Made by a program: the position numbers and the translations under genes. Positions 8,935 through 51,978 of a DNA stretch of 64,000 nucleotides are shown one piece after another; within the stretch, counting starts at the first letter, position 1, and each line of letters begins with the position of its first letter. This DNA comes from Escherichia coli (GTDB taxonomy: Bacteria > Pseudomonadota > Gammaproteobacteria > Enterobacterales > Enterobacteriaceae), in the NCBI RefSeq assembly GCF_044324785.1, contig NZ_CP172127.1, one strand, 5' to 3'. Under the pieces are notes generated by a model. That model made no database searches and was not told the origin of the DNA. It saw only the letters and a program-made list of their open reading frames with translations.

Positions 8935-8965
8935 AATGTAAGTTTTGTTTTGAATACCCGCATCC

Positions 8966-9259
8966 TTATTCCTTAAAGTCATTGAAATCATCATCCGTCA
9001 TATCATTAAGATATTTTTCAGCGCGGCGTGTAATTTCCTCTAATCTTGCAGCACTTGGACGGAAGCGCGCCTTTATAGGCTTTTTCTCTTCTTGTTCAGC
9101 AAGCATGTCCATTAACGCTTCGAATGCGCTGGCACTTAAGAGATATCCTGCGGGGCGATTATTAGAAAGAACCGCAACTGGTTGATCAATAAAGTATTTA
9201 GCTGGGTTTTTACGTAACTCAGTGATATTGACCGATTTTTCAGCGAGAATTCGATGCAT
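8966..9259 (-). CDS. yafN: Antitoxin YafN (Phd/YefM family)
   Basis: 97-aa ORF MHRILAEKSVNITELRKNPAKYFIDQPVAVLSNNRPAGYLL...; lies directly downstream of dinB as in the dinB-yafN-yafO-yafP operon. Confidence 0.85.
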   Translation of the reverse strand: MHRILAEKSVNITELRKNPAKYFIDQPVAVLSNNRPAGYLLSASAFEALMDMLAEQEEKKPIKARFRPSAARLEEITRRAEKYLNDMTDDDFNDFKE

Positions 9260-9310
9260 ATAGTGATCCCCTCATAATAATGCACACCAGAATATACATA
9301 ATAGTCTACA

Positions 9311-10366
9311 TCATAATCCCAGCACCAGTTGTCTTTCCATTTGAGGGTCAAGCAACGTCACATGCAGCCCCACCAGACGCACACCGCGCCCGCCACGGCG
9401 TTCATCCCAGGTTTTACGCGCGGTGGCGATTAAGTCAGCTTTATTCAGCCGCGGCCAGACATGCTCCTGAGTGGTTTGCTGAAAATCGTCGAACTTTAAT
9501 TTCACTCCCTGACGGGCGATCAGTAAATCAGGTTTCACCTTTGCCAAGCGGCGTTCAAGTTCCGGGTACAGCCGCTCGATAATCGCTTCACATTCAGACC
9601 AGTGATGAATATCTTCCGCCATCGTGCGTTCCACGCCGACGGATTTTCGCAACCGTTCGCTGTTAACGTCGCGCTCGTCAATCCCCTGACTACGCTCCCA
9701 CAAAATGCGGCCAAATTTGCCAAAACGTTTGAGCAGAGTCACCAGATCACACTTTTGCACATCACCGCAGGTCCGCAGCCCCATCGCTTCCAGTTTTGCC
9801 GCCGAGACTTTGCCGACGCCGGGAATTTTTGCCAGCGGTAAGGTTTGCAGAAATGCCGGAACTTCTGCCGGAGTAATCACAAACTGACCGTTGGGTTTAT
9901 TCATGTCGGAAGCAATTTTGGCGAGAAACTTTACCGGCGCAACGCCCGCAGATGCCGTCAGTTGCAGCTCGTTGAAGATCGTCTGACGGATTTCCTGGGC
10001 GATGAGGGTCGCGGAGCCGTGGCAATGCACACTATCGGTGACATCGAGATAGGCTTCATCCAGTGATAACGGTTCAATGCGCGAGGTATAGCGCGAGAAA
10101 ATTTCGCGGATATGATTTGAGGCTTCTTTGTAGGCGTCAAAGCGCCCTGGAAGCAGCGTGAGATGTGGGCATAATTTGAGCGCCATCCCTGTCGGCATAG
10201 CGCTACGTACGCCAAATTTACGCGCGGGATAATTGGCGGTGCTGATCACCCCCCGACGTTCGCGGCTGCCGCCAATAGCAATAGGGATATCGCGCAGGGC
10301 AGGATTGTCGCGCATCTCCACCGCTGCGAAAAAGCAGTCCATATCCACATGAATGATTTTACGCAT
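9311..10366 (-). CDS. dinB: DNA polymerase IV (translesion polymerase DinB)
   Basis: 351-aa [49 protein letters not shown]..., Y-family polymerase. Confidence 0.95.
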
Positions 10367-26706: not shown

Positions 26707-28815
26707 TCAGTACTCTCTCATATCCGGCGTATCCTGCTTTTCATCAGGGGTCTTCGGTGGGGATTTCGAGGCTGCACAGTTCCAGTTAATCAACAGTGAG
26801 TCACCATTAACCTGCTCCTTACCCTGCAAATGAATTTTTGTGCCGTTGAGAAAAATTTGTCCGTCCTTAGTCAGCACCAGCCTTGCCTTACCACAGCAGA
26901 GTTCCAGATGCTCACCGGCGGAGTAAATCGCGGTCTGCCCGGTATCATCCTTTTTCGTTTTACCAACGGTGAAGGTAACGTTATTTCCGACTTTGACGTC
27001 ATAACCCAGCCCGACCCTCAACGATTTATGCAAACCGATCTGCGAGGACTGCATCAGGGCCACCGAGGTGTTCATAATGCCACCTACCGTCGTCTGATAC
27101 GCCACGCCCACAGTCAGCGCACGCACAAGTCCAATCGTTTCCACCTGAACAGAGCCCACTTTAATGATCTGGTTACTGCCCACCGTCTCTATCTGGTTAA
27201 CACCCACCGTCTGTATCTGATTGTTGGTAACCGCAATCATCTGATTGTTGCCAATGGTCTCAGCATGGTTGTTTATCACATCCGTGGTGCGGTTATTCAG
27301 CACCTCGGTGTTCATATTCTTCTGCGCGTGGATGTAGACCTGTTCTTTCCCTGTCGCATCGTCAAACTTCAGTTCATTAAACCCGCTGCCCTTATAGGTT
27401 TTCGAACGAATGGTCATCTGCGTCTTTGTTCCCGGCAGGCTGCCGGGGGTGCGGTTTTCCTGGTGGTAGGTACGCCCCATAATAATCGGCTGGTCCGGAT
27501 CGCCGTTGAGGAAGTCCACAATGACTTCCTGACCCACACGCGGTATCGCCAGGTTGCCAAAGCCGGTGCCTGCCCACGCCTGTGCCACACGGATCCAGCA
27601 TGAACTGTCCTGGTTTGACGGGTTATAGCGGTCCCAGTTAAATTTCACCCGCACGCGGCCATGTTCATCACAGAAGATTTCTTCTCCTGCCGGTCCCGTC
27701 ACGACGGCGCTCTGCGGGCCGTCCACCAGCGGTTTCAGCAACGGCTGTGGCCGCCATGTCCGGTCTGCCGGTATTACCGCAAAGTGGTTATTCAGCGTGG
27801 TACCTGAACCCCTGCGTCCCGGCACCGCCTGCGGCTGCTCGCCGTGCAGTTCACTTGCCACCACCTGCCATTCCCGGTTCAGGCTCGCCTGCGGATGCCC
27901 CGTCAGCGCAATTCGCCGTCCCGGCCATATCTCCGGCGAACGGCTTGTTCCGCGCGCCACTTCTGCGTTGTTTCGCCAGCCATCCATCTGCCAGCAGGCA
28001 AAGTTCTGCCCGTGGGCACCCTTGAAACGTCCGGGGTAGTCATACACTTCATACTGTGTGCGCTGGTAATCCTGGTGCTGGCCTTCCTGATCAAAACGCC
28101 CTGCCCAGCCGGGTCGTTTAAAGGTGTAGTCTTTGGTCACCACGGAAGATGGGCGGATTTGTGCGCTGTAGCGGAACTGGCTGATGCAGAGGGTGCTCAC
28201 CTCGGTACGGGTGTTCGGATTCCAGGGGATCTCAAAGGACTCCGGCAGATAACGCACGGTGTCGCACAGGACCAGGCTCTGGTCGGTACTTTTTTGCGCG
28301 TGCTCCTCATAAAAGAAGATGCCTTCCTCCGCCGCCATCCGGCACAGGAAATCGTAATCAGTTTCGCCGTACTGGACACAAAACTCACGGGAAGGATGCG
28401 GCTCGCTGAACAGCGGACTCCACTCGGTCACCCCGTTTTCTTTCAGGATCGTCGCGAGGATGCTTTCGATGTCCTCATTCTGGAAGATACGGAAGTTCTG
28501 GCGCAGCCCTGTGCGCCACAGCGGTGGGCACACCTTCATGCTGTACAGCATCTGGTTTTTGTCGTTCTCCCCCAGTTCAAACCAGGTCACCACACCTTTC
28601 ACCCGGCGCTGTACGTCATCGCCCTGCCATACCGTCAGGTAGGCCATTTTGTCCAGCACCTGCGCAAATTCAAGGGAGAGAAACTGCTGGCTGACCAGAG
28701 AGAGATCGAGGGAAAAGAGCGAAGAGAGTGACTGGTTCAGATGAAAGGAGACCACCGCAAACGTGTCCGGTGGCAGGCCGTCCACTTCCAGCGTGAAACG
28801 TAATCCGGTTGACAT
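26707..28815 (-). CDS. vgrG: T6SS spike protein VgrG (TssI)
   Basis: 702-aa ORF MSTGLRFTLEVDGLPPDTFAVVSFHLNQSLSSLFSLDLSLVS... with gp27/gp5-like regions and a C-terminal repetitive beta segment. Confidence 0.9.
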   Translation of the reverse strand: MSTGLRFTLEVDGLPPDTFAVVSFHLNQSLSSLFSLDLSLVSQQFLSLEFAQVLDKMAYLTVWQGDDVQRRVKGVVTWFELGENDKNQMLYSMKVCPPLWRTGLRQNFRIFQNEDIESILATILKENGVTEWSPLFSEPHPSREFCVQYGETDYDFLCRMAAEEGIFFYEEHAQKSTDQSLVLCDTVRYLPESFEIPWNPNTRTEVSTLCISQFRYSAQIRPSSVVTKDYTFKRPGWAGRFDQEGQHQDYQRTQYEVYDYPGRFKGAHGQNFACWQMDGWRNNAEVARGTSRSPEIWPGRRIALTGHPQASLNREWQVVASELHGEQPQAVPGRRGSGTTLNNHFAVIPADRTWRPQPLLKPLVDGPQSAVVTGPAGEEIFCDEHGRVRVKFNWDRYNPSNQDSSCWIRVAQAWAGTGFGNLAIPRVGQEVIVDFLNGDPDQPIIMGRTYHQENRTPGSLPGTKTQMTIRSKTYKGSGFNELKFDDATGKEQVYIHAQKNMNTEVLNNRTTDVINNHAETIGNNQMIAVTNNQIQTVGVNQIETVGSNQIIKVGSVQVETIGLVRALTVGVAYQTTVGGIMNTSVALMQSSQIGLHKSLRVGLGYDVKVGNNVTFTVGKTKKDDTGQTAIYSAGEHLELCCGKARLVLTKDGQIFLNGTKIHLQGKEQVNGDSLLINWNCAASKSPPKTPDEKQDTPDMREY

Positions 28816-39779: not shown

Positions 39780-42563
39780 ATGATCCAGATTGATCTTCCC
39801 ACGCTGGTAAAACGGCTTAACCTGTTCTCCCGCCAGGCGCTGGAGATGGCCGCCTCTGAATGTATGAGCCAGCAGGCAGCGGAAATTACCGTCAGCCATG
39901 TGCTTATTCAGATGCTCGCCATGCCACGCAGTGACCTGCGGGTTATTACCCGCCAGGGCGATATTGGCATGGAAGAGTTGCGCCAGGCGCTGACGGTGGA
40001 GAACTACACAACTGCCCGTTCTGCGGACAGCTACCCGGCATTTTCCCCGATGCTGGTTGAGTGGCTGAAAGAGGGCTGGCTGCTGGCGTCGGCTGAGATG
40101 CAGCACAGCGAATTGCGTGGCGGCGTGTTGCTGCTGGCCCTGCTGCATTCGCCGCTGCGTTATATACCGCCTGCTGCCGCCCGGCTGTTGACCGGCATTA
40201 ACCGTGACCGTCTGCAACAGGACTTTGTGCAGTGGACACAGGAGTCGGCGGAATCAGTCGTGCCGGATGCAGACGGTAAAGGCGCAGGCACACTGACGGA
40301 CGCTGCTGACACCCTGCTTGCCCGCTACGCCAAAAACATGACCGCAGACGCCCGTAACGGCAGGCTTGACCCGGTACTGTGCCGCGACCACGAAATCGAC
40401 CTGATGATCGACATTCTCTGCCGCCGCCGCAAGAACAACCCGGTGGTGGTGGGCGAAGCAGGCGTGGGTAAAAGTGCCTTAATCGAAGGGCTGGCGCTGC
40501 GCATCGTGGCAGGCCAGGTGCCGGACAAACTGAAAAACACCGATATCATGACCCTTGACCTGGGCGCATTGCAGGCCGGGGCGTCGGTGAAGGGCGAATT
40601 CGAAAAACGCTTCAAGGGGCTGATGGCGGAGGTCATTTCCTCTCCGGTGCCGGTCATTCTGTTTATTGACGAAGCACATACCCTGATTGGCGCGGGCAAC
40701 CAGCAGGGCGGGCTGGATATCTCCAACCTGCTCAAACCGGCGCTGGCGCGCGGCGAGCTGAAAACCATCGCCGCCACCACCTGGAGCGAGTACAAAAAAT
40801 ACTTCGAGAAAGATGCCGCCCTGTCGCGCCGCTTCCAGTTGGTGAAGGTCAGCGAACCCAACGCCGCCGAAGCCACCATTATTCTGCGCGGTCTGTCGGC
40901 GGTCTATGAACAGTCTCACGGCGTGCTGATTGACGATGACGCCTTACAGGCCGCAGCAACACTGAGCGAGCGTTATCTCTCCGGGCGTCAGTTGCCGGAC
41001 AAGGCGATTGATGTACTGGATACGGCCTGCGCCCGTGTGGCCATCAACCTGTCATCGCCACCAAAGCAAATCTCGGCGCTGACCACCCTGAGCCACCAGC
41101 AGGAGGCGGAAATTCGCCAGCTTGAGCGCGAGCTTCGCATCGGGCTGCGTACCGACAACTCACGGATGACGGAGGTGTTGGTGCAGTACGATGAAACGCT
41201 GACGGCGCTGGATGAACTGGAAGCGGCCTGGCATCAGCAGCAGACGCTGGTCCAGGAAATTATCGCGCTGCGCCAGCAGTTACTGGGCGTGGCAGAAGAC
41301 GATGCGGCGTCGTTGCCGGACGCAGATGCCGCGGAGGATACGCCGCCAGAGTCAGAGTCAGAGTCAGAGTCAGAGTCAGAACAGGATAATACCGGTGCCG
41401 TACCGGCTGATGAGGCCGACAGAGAACAGCCGGAAGAGACCGCTGAAACAGTTTCCCCGGTACAGCGGCTGGCCCAGCTCACTGCCGAACTGGACGCCCT
41501 GCATAACGACCGGTTGCTGGTCTCCCCGCACGTCGATAAAAAACAGATTGCGGCGGTGATTGCCGAATGGACCGGCGTACCGCTTAACCGCCTGTCACAG
41601 AATGAAATGTCGGTCATCACCGACCTGCCAAAATGGCTGGGCGACACCATCAAAGGCCAGGACCTGGCGGTTGCGAGCCTGCATAAACACCTGCTGACCG
41701 CACGCGCCGACCTGCGCCGTCCGGGACGCCCGCTTGGCGCGTTCCTGCTGGCTGGCCCCAGCGGCGTGGGTAAAACCGAAACCGTCCTGCAACTGGCGGA
41801 ACTCCTCTACGGCGGTCGCCAGTACCTGACTACCATCAATATGTCCGAGTTTCAGGAGAAGCACACCGTCTCGCGACTGATTGGTTCCCCTCCGGGCTAT
41901 GTCGGCTACGGAGAAGGCGGTGTACTGACCGAAGCGATCCGCCAGAAACCCTACTCGGTGGTGTTGCTCGATGAAGTGGAAAAAGCGCACCCGGATGTGC
42001 TCAACCTGTTCTACCAGGCGTTTGACAAGGGCGAGATGGCAGACGGTGAAGGCCGCCTGATTGACTGTAAAAATATCGTTTTCTTCCTGACCTCCAACCT
42101 TGGCTACCAGGTGATTGTCGAACACGCCGATGACCCGGAAACCATGCAGGAAGCCCTCTATCCGGTGCTGGCGGACTTCTTTAAACCTGCCCTGCTGGCG
42201 CGCATGGAAGTGGTGCCTTACCTGCCGCTGTCGAAAGAGACGCTCGCTACCATTATTGCCGGGAAACTGGCCCGCCTGGATAACGTGCTGCGCAGCCGCT
42301 TTGGCGCGGACGTGATTATTGAGCCGGAAGTGACGGACGAAATCATGAGCCGCGTCACCCGCGCGGAAAACGGCGCGAGGATGCTCGAATCGGTCATCGA
42401 TGGCGACATGCTGCCGCCGCTCTCGCTGCTGCTGTTGCAGAAAATGGCGGCCAACACGGCGATTGCCCGCATCCGCCTGTCGGCGGCAGACGGCGCGTTC
42501 ACGGCAGACGTGGAAGATGCTCAGGACAACGAGTCCGTTACAGAGGATGAAACGGTTTTATGA
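39780..42563 (+). CDS. clpV: T6SS AAA+ ATPase ClpV (TssH)
   Basis: Start taken at MIQIDLPTLVKRLN (39780), 9 nt after the tssL stop. Two AAA modules with Walker A motifs (GEAGVGKSA and GPSGVGKTE). The ORF-track extension from 39666 overlaps tssL and is not credible. Confidence 0.9.
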   Translation: MIQIDLPTLVKRLNLFSRQALEMAASECMSQQAAEITVSHVLIQMLAMPRSDLRVITRQGDIGMEELRQALTVENYTTARSADSYPAFSPMLVEWLKEGWLLASAEMQHSELRGGVLLLALLHSPLRYIPPAAARLLTGINRDRLQQDFVQWTQESAESVVPDADGKGAGTLTDAADTLLARYAKNMTADARNGRLDPVLCRDHEIDLMIDILCRRRKNNPVVVGEAGVGKSALIEGLALRIVAGQVPDKLKNTDIMTLDLGALQAGASVKGEFEKRFKGLMAEVISSPVPVILFIDEAHTLIGAGNQQGGLDISNLLKPALARGELKTIAATTWSEYKKYFEKDAALSRRFQLVKVSEPNAAEATIILRGLSAVYEQSHGVLIDDDALQAAATLSERYLSGRQLPDKAIDVLDTACARVAINLSSPPKQISALTTLSHQQEAEIRQLERELRIGLRTDNSRMTEVLVQYDETLTALDELEAAWHQQQTLVQEIIALRQQLLGVAEDDAASLPDADAAEDTPPESESESESESEQDNTGAVPADEADREQPEETAETVSPVQRLAQLTAELDALHNDRLLVSPHVDKKQIAAVIAEWTGVPLNRLSQNEMSVITDLPKWLGDTIKGQDLAVASLHKHLLTARADLRRPGRPLGAFLLAGPSGVGKTETVLQLAELLYGGRQYLTTINMSEFQEKHTVSRLIGSPPGYVGYGEGGVLTEAIRQKPYSVVLLDEVEKAHPDVLNLFYQAFDKGEMADGEGRLIDCKNIVFFLTSNLGYQVIVEHADDPETMQEALYPVLADFFKPALLARMEVVPYLPLSKETLATIIAGKLARLDNVLRSRFGADVIIEPEVTDEIMSRVTRAENGARMLESVIDGDMLPPLSLLLLQKMAANTAIARIRLSAADGAFTADVEDAQDNESVTEDETVL
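41347..41378 (+). repeat. Hexanucleotide tandem repeat (gagtca x5) inside clpV encoding (Ser-Glu)5
   Basis: gagtcagagtcagagtcagagtcagagtcaga encodes ESESESESESE in an acidic, Pro-rich stretch between the ClpV AAA modules. Confidence 0.8.
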
Positions 42564-49652: not shown

Positions 49653-50132
49653 ATGGCGAATTTAATTTATTTAACACTAAATGGTGATAATCAAGGGCTC
49701 ATTTCAAGTGGTTGTTCATCACAACCATCCATTGGAAATAAAGCTCAAACAGCACACATTGATCAAATTATGATTTATGAATTCATGCATGGATTAAATC
49801 GAGATCAAAACGTCAACCATCATCATTTGACAATAAAAAAACCTATAGATAAAGCATCACCCTTATTAGGTAAAGCAATTTGCGACAATGAATTATTGAC
49901 ATGTGATTTTTCCTTTTATCGTACAAATAAATTTGGAATTAATGAACTGTACTATAAAATCAAATTAACTGGAGCAAAGATAAGCGACATTCATGTCTCT
50001 ATATCACATATTGTTGTTGATAACAGCGTTCAACCCGAAGAGTCAGTTTCTTTCAGTTATGAGTCAATTATATGGGAGCATTGTTCCGCTGGCACTAGTG
50101 CATACAGTTTATGGGAAGATCGTCTTCTTTAA
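49653..50132 (+). CDS. Divergent second Hcp (Hcp-family tube protein paralog) in an AT-rich module
   Basis: 159-aa ORF with aaggag RBS; MANLIYLTLNGDNQGLISSGCSSQPSIGN... and ...WEHCSAGTSAYSLWED align with the main Hcp (MPTPCYISITGQTQGNITAGAFTADSVGN..., ...WEHVKSGTSGADDW); the DNA is visibly much more AT-rich. Confidence 0.75.
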   Translation: MANLIYLTLNGDNQGLISSGCSSQPSIGNKAQTAHIDQIMIYEFMHGLNRDQNVNHHHLTIKKPIDKASPLLGKAICDNELLTCDFSFYRTNKFGINELYYKIKLTGAKISDIHVSISHIVVDNSVQPEESVSFSYESIIWEHCSAGTSAYSLWEDRLL

Positions 50133-50152
50133 AAATATCTGGGATTATTATA

Positions 50153-51049
50153 ATGGCTAACAATATTTTACACTCTTCAACATCAGACAGTGAAAGCAAA
50201 AATACAAGCACTGACAGTACGTTATTTAATGAAAAATTCCCATTTCGATTAAGGCAAGATTTCGCATCAAGAATAACAGAAGATGAAAGTGATTTTTTTA
50301 AATGGAAAAAAATAAGAGAGTTGGCAATTGTGAGCAATCATAAAGAATGGAATAAATATGACTTATTAATTTCAAAATCTGTTAATGAAATCAACATTCA
50401 TTTGTCCAGCACTCCATACTTTCAGCCGTTGGATTGGTATATAATAAAAGCCATGCTCTGGACTGAAAACGATGCGGCAAATACTTCTCAGTGGAATGGT
50501 TATCCATTACAAATTGGTCGTTTTCGGAAAGATAAAGCGATGCCTGCTTTAATCTCTGGTGAAAAATCCACAGCCCTTGTTACCCCACCACAATGGAGAA
50601 ACAAAGCATTCAATGGGTTAAAAGATCCAGAAAGAAATTACTGGGCAAAAGAACAAATAACTGGCTCTCCAGAAGAGAATGTCAAAGCAGCAATTACTTA
50701 CTTAATGATGAAACTTTCTAATACAAAGGAAGAATCAACTATCGATCAATATGACTCAACTCTATATAGCGCCATTGTCCAAAAAGGCGATTTGGCTGAC
50801 AACATCAGAAAAGAGAGAAAAACGACCATACCTAACTTAACGAAAAACAACCCTGGAAAAAATCTCGATAAAATACACCCGGGAGATATTTTATATTATC
50901 AAAAAGCATCCATGAAAGTAATAATTACTGGATGGAAACCTATCACAATAAAAAATGTAGCGATGAATTATAATGGTGGTGGAGATCCCAAGTATGCAAT
51001 AAAACTTCAGTTCGTTTATACATTGCTCACAAAAAACAGAGTGTTATGA
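50153..51049 (+). CDS. Candidate T6SS effector, cysteine-free, possibly cell-wall-targeting
   Basis: About 298 aa (ORF track 50111..51049); AT-rich; directly downstream of hcp2 and upstream of a secreted small protein. Weak SLT/lysozyme-like motif spacing (LWTENDAANTSQWNGYPLQI ... AMNYNGGGDP), not verified. Confidence 0.5.
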   Translation: MANNILHSSTSDSESKNTSTDSTLFNEKFPFRLRQDFASRITEDESDFFKWKKIRELAIVSNHKEWNKYDLLISKSVNEINIHLSSTPYFQPLDWYIIKAMLWTENDAANTSQWNGYPLQIGRFRKDKAMPALISGEKSTALVTPPQWRNKAFNGLKDPERNYWAKEQITGSPEENVKAAITYLMMKLSNTKEESTIDQYDSTLYSAIVQKGDLADNIRKERKTTIPNLTKNNPGKNLDKIHPGDILYYQKASMKVIITGWKPITIKNVAMNYNGGGDPKYAIKLQFVYTLLTKNRVL

Positions 51050-51501
51050 GAATGGGAAAAATAACAATTATTCTACTGCTTACATTCTCATGTACAAAAG
51101 GTCTGGCATTTGACATTTCCATGTCTAAAGAATGTAGTGGCGTTGATGAACTTGAATTTGTTGATTGTGTTAAAAACTCATTTATTATGAGCACTATTAC
51201 ACTTAAAAAAGCAGAAGCAAATATAAAAGAGAAAATTAAAAAATGGAATAACGATGAGGACGAAGCAATAAGAAAAGAAGCAGTTATTTCTTTAAAAAGA
51301 CTAGAATCTTCTAATCGGGAATTTATACGTTACAGATTTGCTCAATGCTCTTTTGCTCTAACCTGGGGGGCCAGAGTAGGACGCCTGGCATTCTCTCGAC
51401 TATATCCATGCTATACTGAGTTAAACAAAATAAGAGCCATGCAACTAAACAATGCTTACATTTCAGATTTTCAAAATCCAGATGAGATATCCAGCAAATG
51501 A
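51046..51501 (+). CDS. Candidate periplasmic immunity protein (small, Cys-containing, signal peptide)
   Basis: 151-aa ORF overlapping the effector stop (ATGA); signal peptide MRMGKITIILLLTFSCTKGLA; six Cys; resemblance to LprI/DUF1311-like proteins is recalled but unverified. Confidence 0.5.
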   Translation: MRMGKITIILLLTFSCTKGLAFDISMSKECSGVDELEFVDCVKNSFIMSTITLKKAEANIKEKIKKWNNDEDEAIRKEAVISLKRLESSNREFIRYRFAQCSFALTWGARVGRLAFSRLYPCYTELNKIRAMQLNNAYISDFQNPDEISSK

Positions 51502-51854
51502 TTATTATAAAATTAAGATTAACATTACTATTTATACTGGCCACAATTACATATTCAGTACAATCAGACGAATTCGATGATCAAACCACTTACACGCAAT
51601 ACCGTTATTTTTCCACAGCCATACCAGAAGATATACGTAGATTTATGTTCTACGTAGATTTGTGCTTTGTAGATTTAGCATTCGATATCGAAACTGACTC
51701 AATGACAGCTAAAAATGATATTATTAATGAATGTACCCCATTAAAAGAAAGAAACAAAACATTAAAAGAAAAATATAAAAAAGATGAAGAGATAATAGCA
51801 ATTCTTTCCATTGCAGATGATACCATTTTAATTTATGAAGAATTAAAAAAATAA
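51498..51854 (+). CDS. Second small secreted protein (possible additional or orphan immunity protein)
   Basis: 118-aa ORF overlapping the previous stop; signal peptide MIIIKLRLTLLFILATITYSVQS; AT-rich. Confidence 0.4.
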   Translation: MIIIKLRLTLLFILATITYSVQSDEFDDQTTYTQYRYFSTAIPEDIRRFMFYVDLCFVDLAFDIETDSMTAKNDIINECTPLKERNKTLKEKYKKDEEIIAILSIADDTILIYEELKK

Positions 51855-51978
51855 CTCACATGCAATTCACTGGCAATATATATTATAATTTTATAAAAAA
51901 TCATATTTACATTATAGAAATACTCAGCTCCTGTTTGCTGCCCGCCCTAAACTACAGGCGGCAGCATAACAATAACGA

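Follow-up and report, generated by a model that had tools for sequence, protein, structure and literature searches.

ClpV acts on the sheath of the T6SS (type VI secretion system), and ClpB works with DnaK. In ClpB and Hsp104, the middle (M) domain is a regulatory element. For typing of E. coli, the generic MLVA scheme GECM-10 was reportedly introduced by Lindstedt 2007 and Lobersli 2012. Perfect short repeats that lie inside coding sequence and are prone to slippage are represented by the contingency loci of Neisseria and Haemophilus, where frameshifts switch expression on and off. In E. coli O157:H7, 6-bp VNTRs gain or lose whole units at rates of ~4e-5 to 2e-3 per generation, which has been attributed to slipped-strand mispairing, and the rate climbs in alleles of more than 13 units (PMC3777172). 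A recent comparison of EHEC EDL933 with O55:H7 CB9615 reported a 12-bp deletion of two units in clpV (PMC12981562, 2026). The corresponding loss of Ser531-Glu532-Ser533-Glu534 was counted among 26 changes read as degenerative in EHEC, and a (GGTGAA)6 insertion was described in Z0269 of EDL933 relative to CB9615 (PMC12981562).

We analyzed a 64,000-nt stretch of E. coli DNA (contig NZ_CP172127.1, hereafter the window), in which the original prediction had noted a repeat inside clpV. Both Pfam domains and synteny support this identification of the gene. The product carries AAA (aa 223-334), AAA_lid_9 (aa 363-453), AAA_2 (aa 650-811) and ClpB_D2-small (aa 817-892) domains, that is, the two AAA+ modules and ClpB-type D2-small domain of ClpV/TssH, with matches to ClpB structures in the PDB (E 2e-150). 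Residues 2-159 match the N-domain chain of V. cholerae ClpV (3zri_A, E 2.7e-33), demonstrating a ClpV-type N-domain. The exact protein is already on record as E. coli TssH, and its syntenic counterpart in strain N3 of E. coli carries a TssH annotation within a T6SS cluster. The window and N3 share the gene order vgrG, hcp, tssB, C, E, F, G, tagH, tssJ, tssK, dotU, tssH, vasI, tssA, tssM, vasL, hcp. The T6SS core cluster genes of the window are all intact ORFs and, judged from the sequence, its T6SS-2 cluster is apparently intact; the N3 cluster is decayed, with tssA and vasL frameshifted. By family membership, TssH of the window would be the ATPase that disassembles contracted TssB/C sheaths. 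The coordinates of the features are listed in the table.

Table. Features of the tssH/clpV repeat locus (positions in the window)
Feature	Position	Strand	Details or basis
tssH/clpV CDS, 927 aa, AAA+ ATPase of T6SS-2	39780..42563 (stop included)	+	ORF list, Pfam, PDB matches, synteny
MLVA primer site CGCCGCCGAAGCAAATCTC, 2 mismatches	41056..41074	+	Primer table of PMC8143711 (Table 1), in-silico match
Segment encoding the 58-aa acidic low-complexity loop (predicted), aa 503-560, array central	41286..41459	+	AF2 model, 1qvr alignment, homologues
(GAGTCA)5 perfect hexanucleotide array	41349..41378	+	Encodes (Glu-Ser)5, residues E524-S533 of TssH
Partner MLVA primer site GCAATCACCGCCGCAATCTGTT, 0 mismatches	41542..41563	-	Primer table of PMC8143711 (Table 1), in-silico match

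The repeat had been described as a perfect hexanucleotide repeat at 41347-41378 encoding (Ser-Glu)5, and this was confirmed, with coordinates good to 2 nt. The five GAGTCA units are bordered by ccgcca on the 5' side and gaacag on the 3' side. In the tssH frame (ATG at 39780) each unit reads Glu-Ser and E534 follows the array; the same residue run can also be read as (Ser-Glu)5, S525-E534. In the CAGAGT phase, TRF reported perfect periodicity over 41347-41380 (period 6, 5.7 copies, 100% matches, score 68). Among perfect repeats with units of 4-12 nt and 3 or more copies, the 64-kb window contains just the tssH array and one GCGG x3. The (GGTGAA)n array of Z0269, another in-frame hexanucleotide VNTR belonging to the same T6SS cluster, was searched for in the window and is absent there. 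The lag-6 self-match run at the array is 28 nt long, whereas 200 shuffles averaged 7.7 and reached 13 at most; with an analytic expectation of ~3e-12, a chance origin is ruled out. Two overlapping ORFs, one at 41212-41559 (+) reading the array as QSQSQS and the other at 41234-41653 (-) reading it as DSDSDS, lie wholly within the strongly supported CDS and were judged spurious.

The repeat had also been placed between the two AAA modules. This holds in the primary sequence, where the array follows AAA_lid_9 and precedes AAA_2, but the array is not part of a plain D1-D2 linker. It is instead predicted to sit in an intrinsically disordered acidic loop within the ClpB-type M domain. The AlphaFold2 model of TssH has a mean pLDDT of 90.8, with values below 50 at aa 513-541 and 543-551, and aa 509-559 are modelled without secondary structure. 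The helices on either side (aa 461-501 and 560-575), together with that at aa 429-453, correspond to the M domain of ClpB/Hsp104, a coiled-coil insertion in the AAA-1 small subdomain, with aa 587-598 as the last D1-small helix. The loop fails to align to ClpB and falls between residues 466 and 497 of 1qvr; ClpB has ~30 structured residues there, whereas ClpV of the window has the predicted disordered acidic chain. Among 100 diverse TssH homologues (36-64% identity), the equivalent loop varies between 0 and 62 aa (median 12) and is enriched in A/E/D/G/S/T/P, and the E. coli loop ranks among the longest. A homologue search with a 187-aa loop segment returned only fragments of at most 328 aa, used qualitatively to view other enterobacterial loops and not for allele counts; those from Salmonella and Klebsiella carry unrelated acidic fillers at the loop position.

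We then compared the copy number of the array across E. coli. The segment is carried by 2,736 of 5,426 complete genomes, in 2,712 of which at least 80% of it lies in one place. Arrays were read directly in 13 sequences (12 fetched loci and the window). In L010 the allele is repeat-free and reads GAGGCA, and the others contain 1, 1, 2, 3, 5, 5, 8, 9, 11, 16, 19 and 30 GAGTCA units. Length differences in step with this allele series fall in the array, and the divergent alleles L010 and L011 carry additional in-frame indels elsewhere in the loop. For genomes without a fetched locus, copy number was inferred from BLAST span lengths, giving 0 to ~35 units among 118 listed genomes. In a systematic sample of 59 genomes, 36 had at most 2 units and 23 had 3-30. 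The original prediction had expected length variation without frameshift and named an invariant copy number as the finding that would refute it. The results showed that copy number varies widely and that every array length difference in the 12 fetched loci and the 118 listed genomes is a multiple of 6 nt. The reading frame is open throughout the fetched segments with 1-30 units, and alleles of 11-35 units are annotated as intact CDS. The tssH genes of L008, L011 and UTME-7 are flagged as pseudogenes, and in their fetched segments the array itself is in frame; the flag in UTME-7 stems from scattered 1-nt insertions that lie outside the array. A span shortened by 13 nt in UTME-7, considered as a non-modular array change, was rejected, being five scattered 1-nt insertions outside its 2-unit array. 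In RefSeq, the product name is 'AAA family ATPase' and not TssH for alleles of ~14 units upwards.

Copy number changes fast relative to point mutation, as seen from differing arrays on identical flanks. The window (5 units) and N3 (8 units) have 0/971 flank mismatches, and the O157:H7 genomes F8092B (5 units) and H52_982342 (3 units) have 0/968. Strains 99_0849 (19 units) and 95NR1 (9 units) differ at 1/971 flank positions. On a single flank haplotype, defined by identical BLAST score and present in 58 genomes, the array ranges from 11 to 35 units. The arrays are perfect save for one synonymous GAATCA interruption in the 30-unit allele.

This polymorphism is already known, since the locus is an established MLVA typing locus, most likely CVN016 of the generic E. 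coli scheme. A published primer pair flanks the repeat, though the table in PMC8143711 labels it CVN017. Its in-silico amplicon (41056-41563) is 508 bp, or 478 + 5x6, so that (508-478)/6 returns the 5 copies observed. The 6-bp unit and the offset of 478 + 6n are those of CVN016, for which an independent laboratory reported 475 bp as the product size at 0 repeats (PMC3877011). The pair labelled CVN016 yields ~279 bp beside tRNA-Ser (serW), a size that fits the offset of 202 listed for CVN017, and the labels therefore appear to be swapped in the primer tables. The CVN017 label for the matching pair occurs in two secondary primer tables from one group; the size formula and the independent amplicon size favour CVN016. 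The pattern of presence and alleles across lineages also agrees with published typing data. Among ESBL E. coli, 59% lack CVN016 (PMC5217547), and the segment is present in about half of the genomes examined here. In ST38, alleles of 10-20 units have been reported (PMC3407997), and a genome named 'strain ST38' has 15 units and belongs to the 11-35-unit haplotype above. The published range for STEC is 1-15, and STEC-type genomes here have 1-19 units. Nothing biological distinguishes CVN016 from the array of the window: they are most likely one locus, which about half of E. coli lack and which is highly polymorphic in the carriers. In the MLVA literature surveyed, CVN016 is an anonymous marker whose clpV location and encoded product are unmentioned, and literature searches linking E. 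coli VNTRs to ClpV, and tandem repeats to type VI secretion, O157 and MLVA, returned nothing relevant. The PulseNet-type hexanucleotide VNTRs of O157:H7 (TR and O157-n) resemble the array in their perfect 6-bp units, whole-unit changes and a rate that rises with allele length (PMC3777172), but they are other loci. Primers for the O157:H7 PulseNet loci VNTR-3, -9, -17, -19, -25 and -37 had no match in the window at up to 6 mismatches, and the array is therefore probably none of these loci.

Taken together, the array is very probably a slippage-driven, largely neutral VNTR in tssH/clpV of the E. coli T6SS-2. By analogy with E. coli O157, where 6-bp VNTRs have been measured, slipped-strand mispairing at replication is the most likely mechanism: perfect GAGTCA units would misalign, and whole 6-nt units would be gained or lost. 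As the unit spans two codons, a Glu-Ser pair would be added or removed at each event and the frame kept; because a disordered loop would tolerate almost any length, alleles from 0 to ~35 units could persist and drift. The locus would thus serve as a rapid, essentially neutral molecular clock and not as a switch. The array shares perfect, slippage-prone coding repeats with the contingency loci of Neisseria and Haemophilus, but its 6-nt unit always keeps the frame, and the absence of any non-modular array difference among the loci and genomes compared argues against a phase-variable on/off locus. Copy number itself is probably neutral in function, although loop length may affect ClpV activity.

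Such an effect is the core of an alternative in which the length of (Glu-Ser)n alters the ClpV middle domain, through autoinhibition, hexamer contacts or sheath engagement, and selection tunes T6SS-2 firing or recycling between lineages. The array does lie inside the M-domain coiled coil, a domain that regulates ClpB/Hsp104 activity (cited in PMC11975955), the long alleles stay open, and the E. coli loop is unusually long among homologues. However, functional-looking TssH homologues have loops of anywhere between 0 and 62 aa with unrelated sequences, ~60% of the E. coli carriers have at most 2 units, and copy number differs even between genomes with identical flanks. It differs as well in decayed systems, both in N3 and in EDL933, where tssM and vipB are damaged (PMC12981562), and the repeat is not known to be linked to any phenotype. 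We therefore consider selective tuning quite unlikely. It is decidedly improbable that an acidic disordered chain of 0 to ~70 residues at the tip of the ClpV middle domain, which could modulate hexamer regulation or sheath engagement, serves as a heritable, rapidly adjustable rheostat of T6SS-2 recycling.

The EDL933 deletion affects the same array, its residues carrying the same numbers (Ser531-Glu534), and takes it from 5 units, the state of the window, to 3. In PMC12981562 it is grouped with degenerative changes in EHEC, so that unit loss would be one of several damaging mutations marking T6SS decay, whereas here it appears as ordinary VNTR polymorphism. Across E. coli, unit changes run in both directions (0-35 units), even on identical flanks; in the window, 5 units go together with T6SS core genes whose ORFs are all intact; and the 4 residues are lost from a loop predicted to be disordered. 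Decay is thus a very improbable explanation. Misassembly of a short repeat could in principle also create copy-number differences, and UTME-7 does have scattered single-base insertions in tssH typical of long-read error, but these errors lie outside the array. The arrays, at 6-210 nt, are shorter than reads, and among complete genomes produced by many laboratories they differ only in whole units. The related isolates 2022N21-074, 2022N21-074-17 and 2020N21-110 share a match span of 1,051 nt, equivalent to 30 units, and MLVA fragment sizing by PCR shows the same range for CVN016 (1-15 and 10-20). An assembly or sequencing artefact is therefore extremely improbable.

The reading of the array as a largely neutral VNTR ties an anonymous typing marker, most likely CVN016, to a gene and a protein setting, a loop of the ClpV middle domain that is predicted to be disordered. 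It also indicates that the two-unit EHEC difference lately read as T6SS degeneration falls within ordinary repeat polymorphism. The shift in RefSeq naming of long alleles could make automated surveys miss T6SS core genes. A new biological question would arise only if loop length affects ClpV function, and the practical value is otherwise modest; the rheostat reading, if true, would make this repeat an in-frame analogue of a contingency locus.

Direct reading of the sequence around the repeat in tssH/clpV gave ccgcca-(GAGTCA)5-gaacag, and TRF reported the same array in its CAGAGT phase (period 6, 5.7 copies, 100% matches, score 68). A scan of the 64-kb window showed this to be its only perfect repeat with at least three copies of a 4-12-nt unit, besides one GCGG x3. 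The lag-6 self-match of the array was 28 nt; in 200 shuffles such runs averaged 7.7 nt and never exceeded 13. These results confirm, at the coordinates first given, the hexanucleotide array of the original prediction, which is genuine and not a product of chance. The predicted (Ser-Glu)5 coding also held, the units reading Glu-Ser in the tssH frame (E524-S533, then E534). TRF additionally listed three imperfect tandem repeats (Table).

Table. Features in the window and in comparison loci
Feature	Position	Strand	Details
tssH/clpV ORF	39780 (ATG)-42563		927 aa; array in frame (ORF list); RefSeq annotations of tssH homologues correspond to this span
GAGTCA array	41349-41378		5 units
Same array, CAGAGT phase	41347-41380		TRF
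MLVA primer site	41542-41563	-	0 mismatches
MLVA partner primer site	41056-41074	+	2 mismatches
tssH protospacer	41193-41224	+	32 nt, identical to MS 21-1 spacer
Imperfect repeat in vgrG	27167-27219		period 24, 2.2 copies
Imperfect repeats	1814-1853; 51739-51780		period 21, ~2 copies each
T6SS island	20587-49735		99.57% identity to N3
Left core genes	1-20507		97.8-98.3% identity to N3
Right core genes	49736-64000		99.0% identity to N3
One flank of island			proB, phoE, crl, frsA, gpt, pepD through yafV
Island gene order			ISAs1 remnant, Rhs, vgrG, hcp, tssB, C, E, F, G, tagH, tssJ, tssK, dotU, tssH, vasI, tssA, tssM, vasL, hcp
Other flank of island			tRNA-Asp, dnaQ
N3 sequence missing from window	~8939		~377 bp at yafP/yafO toxin-antitoxin junction; alignment goes from 8941 to 9318 of the N3 locus (L014)
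MS 21-1 spacer site	L013 701-734		NZ_CP146670.1 1137566-1137599
Product region of CVN016-labelled pair	L016 1589-1780		O157:H7 PV15-279, serW-clpA intergenic, just downstream of serW

The clpV identity was borne out by Pfam domains (AAA, AAA_lid_9, AAA_2, ClpB_D2-small), by PDB matches to ClpB (E 2e-150) and, at the N-terminus, to the V. cholerae ClpV N-domain (3zri, E 3e-33), by an identical protein already recorded as E. coli TssH, and by synteny with the collinear strain N3. Every T6SS core gene in the window is an intact ORF, and the cluster type is named T6SS-2 in EHEC (PMC12981562). Rhs, tssA and vasL, intact in the window, are frameshifted in N3. The island is closer to N3 than are the core genes beside it, which suggests that it was swapped by recombination.

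We then located the array in the protein. In phmmer alignments to T. thermophilus ClpB, ClpV 178-497 matched residues 151-466 and 564-886 matched 497-825, leaving aa 498-563 unaligned within the ClpB middle-domain region. An AlphaFold2 model from a 101-sequence alignment was confident overall (mean pLDDT 90.8, pTM 0.78). It assigned no secondary structure to aa 509-559, with pLDDT <50 at 513-541 and 543-551; coiled-coil helices 461-501 and 560-575 bracket these segments. Across 100 diverse TssH homologues (36-64% identity) the corresponding loop spans 0-62 aa (median 12), with mutually unrelated sequences enriched in A/E/D/G/S/T/P; the 58-aa E. coli loop lies near the upper end, and fragments from Salmonella, Klebsiella and others carry different acidic fillers or almost no loop. 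The array is between the AAA modules, as proposed, but is thus predicted to occupy a disordered, unconstrained M-domain loop and not a plain linker, which accounts for the tolerance of 0 to about 70 added residues.

To compare copy number across strains, a 901-nt query around the array was searched against 5,426 complete E. coli genomes; 2,736 matched, 2,712 of them with at least 80% of the query in one place, and matched spans ran from 853 to 1,051 nt. Twelve loci were fetched and their DNA and translation inspected, which assigned the allele-tracking length differences to the array. The window and 11 of these loci carried 1, 1, 2, 3, 5, 5, 8, 9, 11, 16, 19 and 30 units; the twelfth, type strain ATCC 11775 (L010), has GAGGCA (Glu-Ala) in place of repeats. 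Further in-frame indels occur in the flanking loop of L010 and another divergent locus (L011). All arrays were perfect except for one synonymous GAATCA in the 30-unit allele. In a systematic sample of 59 genomes, with unfetched copy numbers inferred from span length, 36 had at most 2 units and 23 had 3-30, and the 58 genomes ranked directly below N3, on one flank haplotype of equal bit score, had 11 to 35. The one odd span, -13 nt in UTME-7, was rejected as a non-modular array change: the array there has 2 units, and the shift comes from five 1-nt insertions scattered elsewhere. In the fetched loci and listed genomes array differences were always multiples of 6, so the array never breaks frame. 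Far from being invariant, copy number ranges from 0 to about 35, in whole 6-nt steps only, as the predicted in-frame variation implied.

Unit number also differed on nearly or fully identical flanks: window versus N3 (5 and 8 units, 0/971 mismatches), O157:H7 F8092B versus H52_982342 (5 and 3, 0/968), and 99_0849 versus 95NR1 (19 and 9, 1/971). Such change on point-identical backgrounds bears the signature of a hypermutable VNTR and agrees with the predicted slippage-proneness. During O157:H7 passage, comparable 6-bp VNTRs gained or lost whole units at ~4e-5 to 2e-3 per generation, faster in alleles >13 units, and the changes were ascribed to slipped-strand mispairing (PMC3777172); by analogy, we infer the same mechanism here.

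The clpV VNTR is already known and in use as a typing marker. A generic E. coli MLVA primer table (PMC8143711) includes a pair binding around the array, with an in-silico amplicon of 508 bp, for which the formula (PS-478)/6 from that paper gives exactly 5. The formula is assigned to locus CVN016, yet the matching pair is labelled CVN017, as it is in PMC8261245. Several further lines favour CVN016. An independent laboratory reported a 475-bp CVN016 product with 0 repeats (PMC3877011). Among ESBL isolates, CVN016 was null in 59% and CVN017 in all (PMC5217547), compared with about half of genomes having tssH. ST38 alleles of CVN016 span 10-20 units (PMC3407997), and genome 'strain ST38' has 15 at the clpV array. 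The pair labelled CVN016 primes from tRNA-Ser (serW), its ~279-bp product suiting the 202 offset. The array is therefore most likely CVN016, and we conclude that the labels are probably swapped in both primer tables. In O157:H7 a type I-F-like CRISPR repeat (CTGCCTGTACGGCAGTGAAC) occurs twice in the region downstream of serW, which suggests that the other MLVA locus may be a CRISPR remnant.

In E. coli MS 21-1, one spacer of a type I-E CRISPR array is identical to tssH ~125 nt upstream of the GAGTCA array; the 901-nt query found no other match in that genome. With the base beside the protospacer on the crRNA-sense strand, the PAM reads GCC, not AAG, and the CRISPR repeat adjoining the spacer ends in C, not G, which is what copying of that base from the protospacer would produce. 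In RefSeq, tssH products with at most about 13-14 units are called 'type VI secretion system ATPase TssH' and those with ~14 or more merely 'AAA family ATPase', with one exception seen (H50, 1 unit); the change of name seems to be an annotation artefact caused by repeat expansion.

Taken together, the feature is very probably a slippage-prone in-frame VNTR within a disordered ClpV loop, and both the observation and the interpretation originally offered were right. Compared with O55:H7, EDL933 ClpV lacks Ser531-Glu534 through a 12-bp deletion, which was taken as degeneration (PMC12981562, 2026). That deletion is a change from 5 to 3 units, well inside normal polymorphism. A functional tuning role for repeat length seems unlikely and found no support, and the clpV VNTR is most likely neutral.
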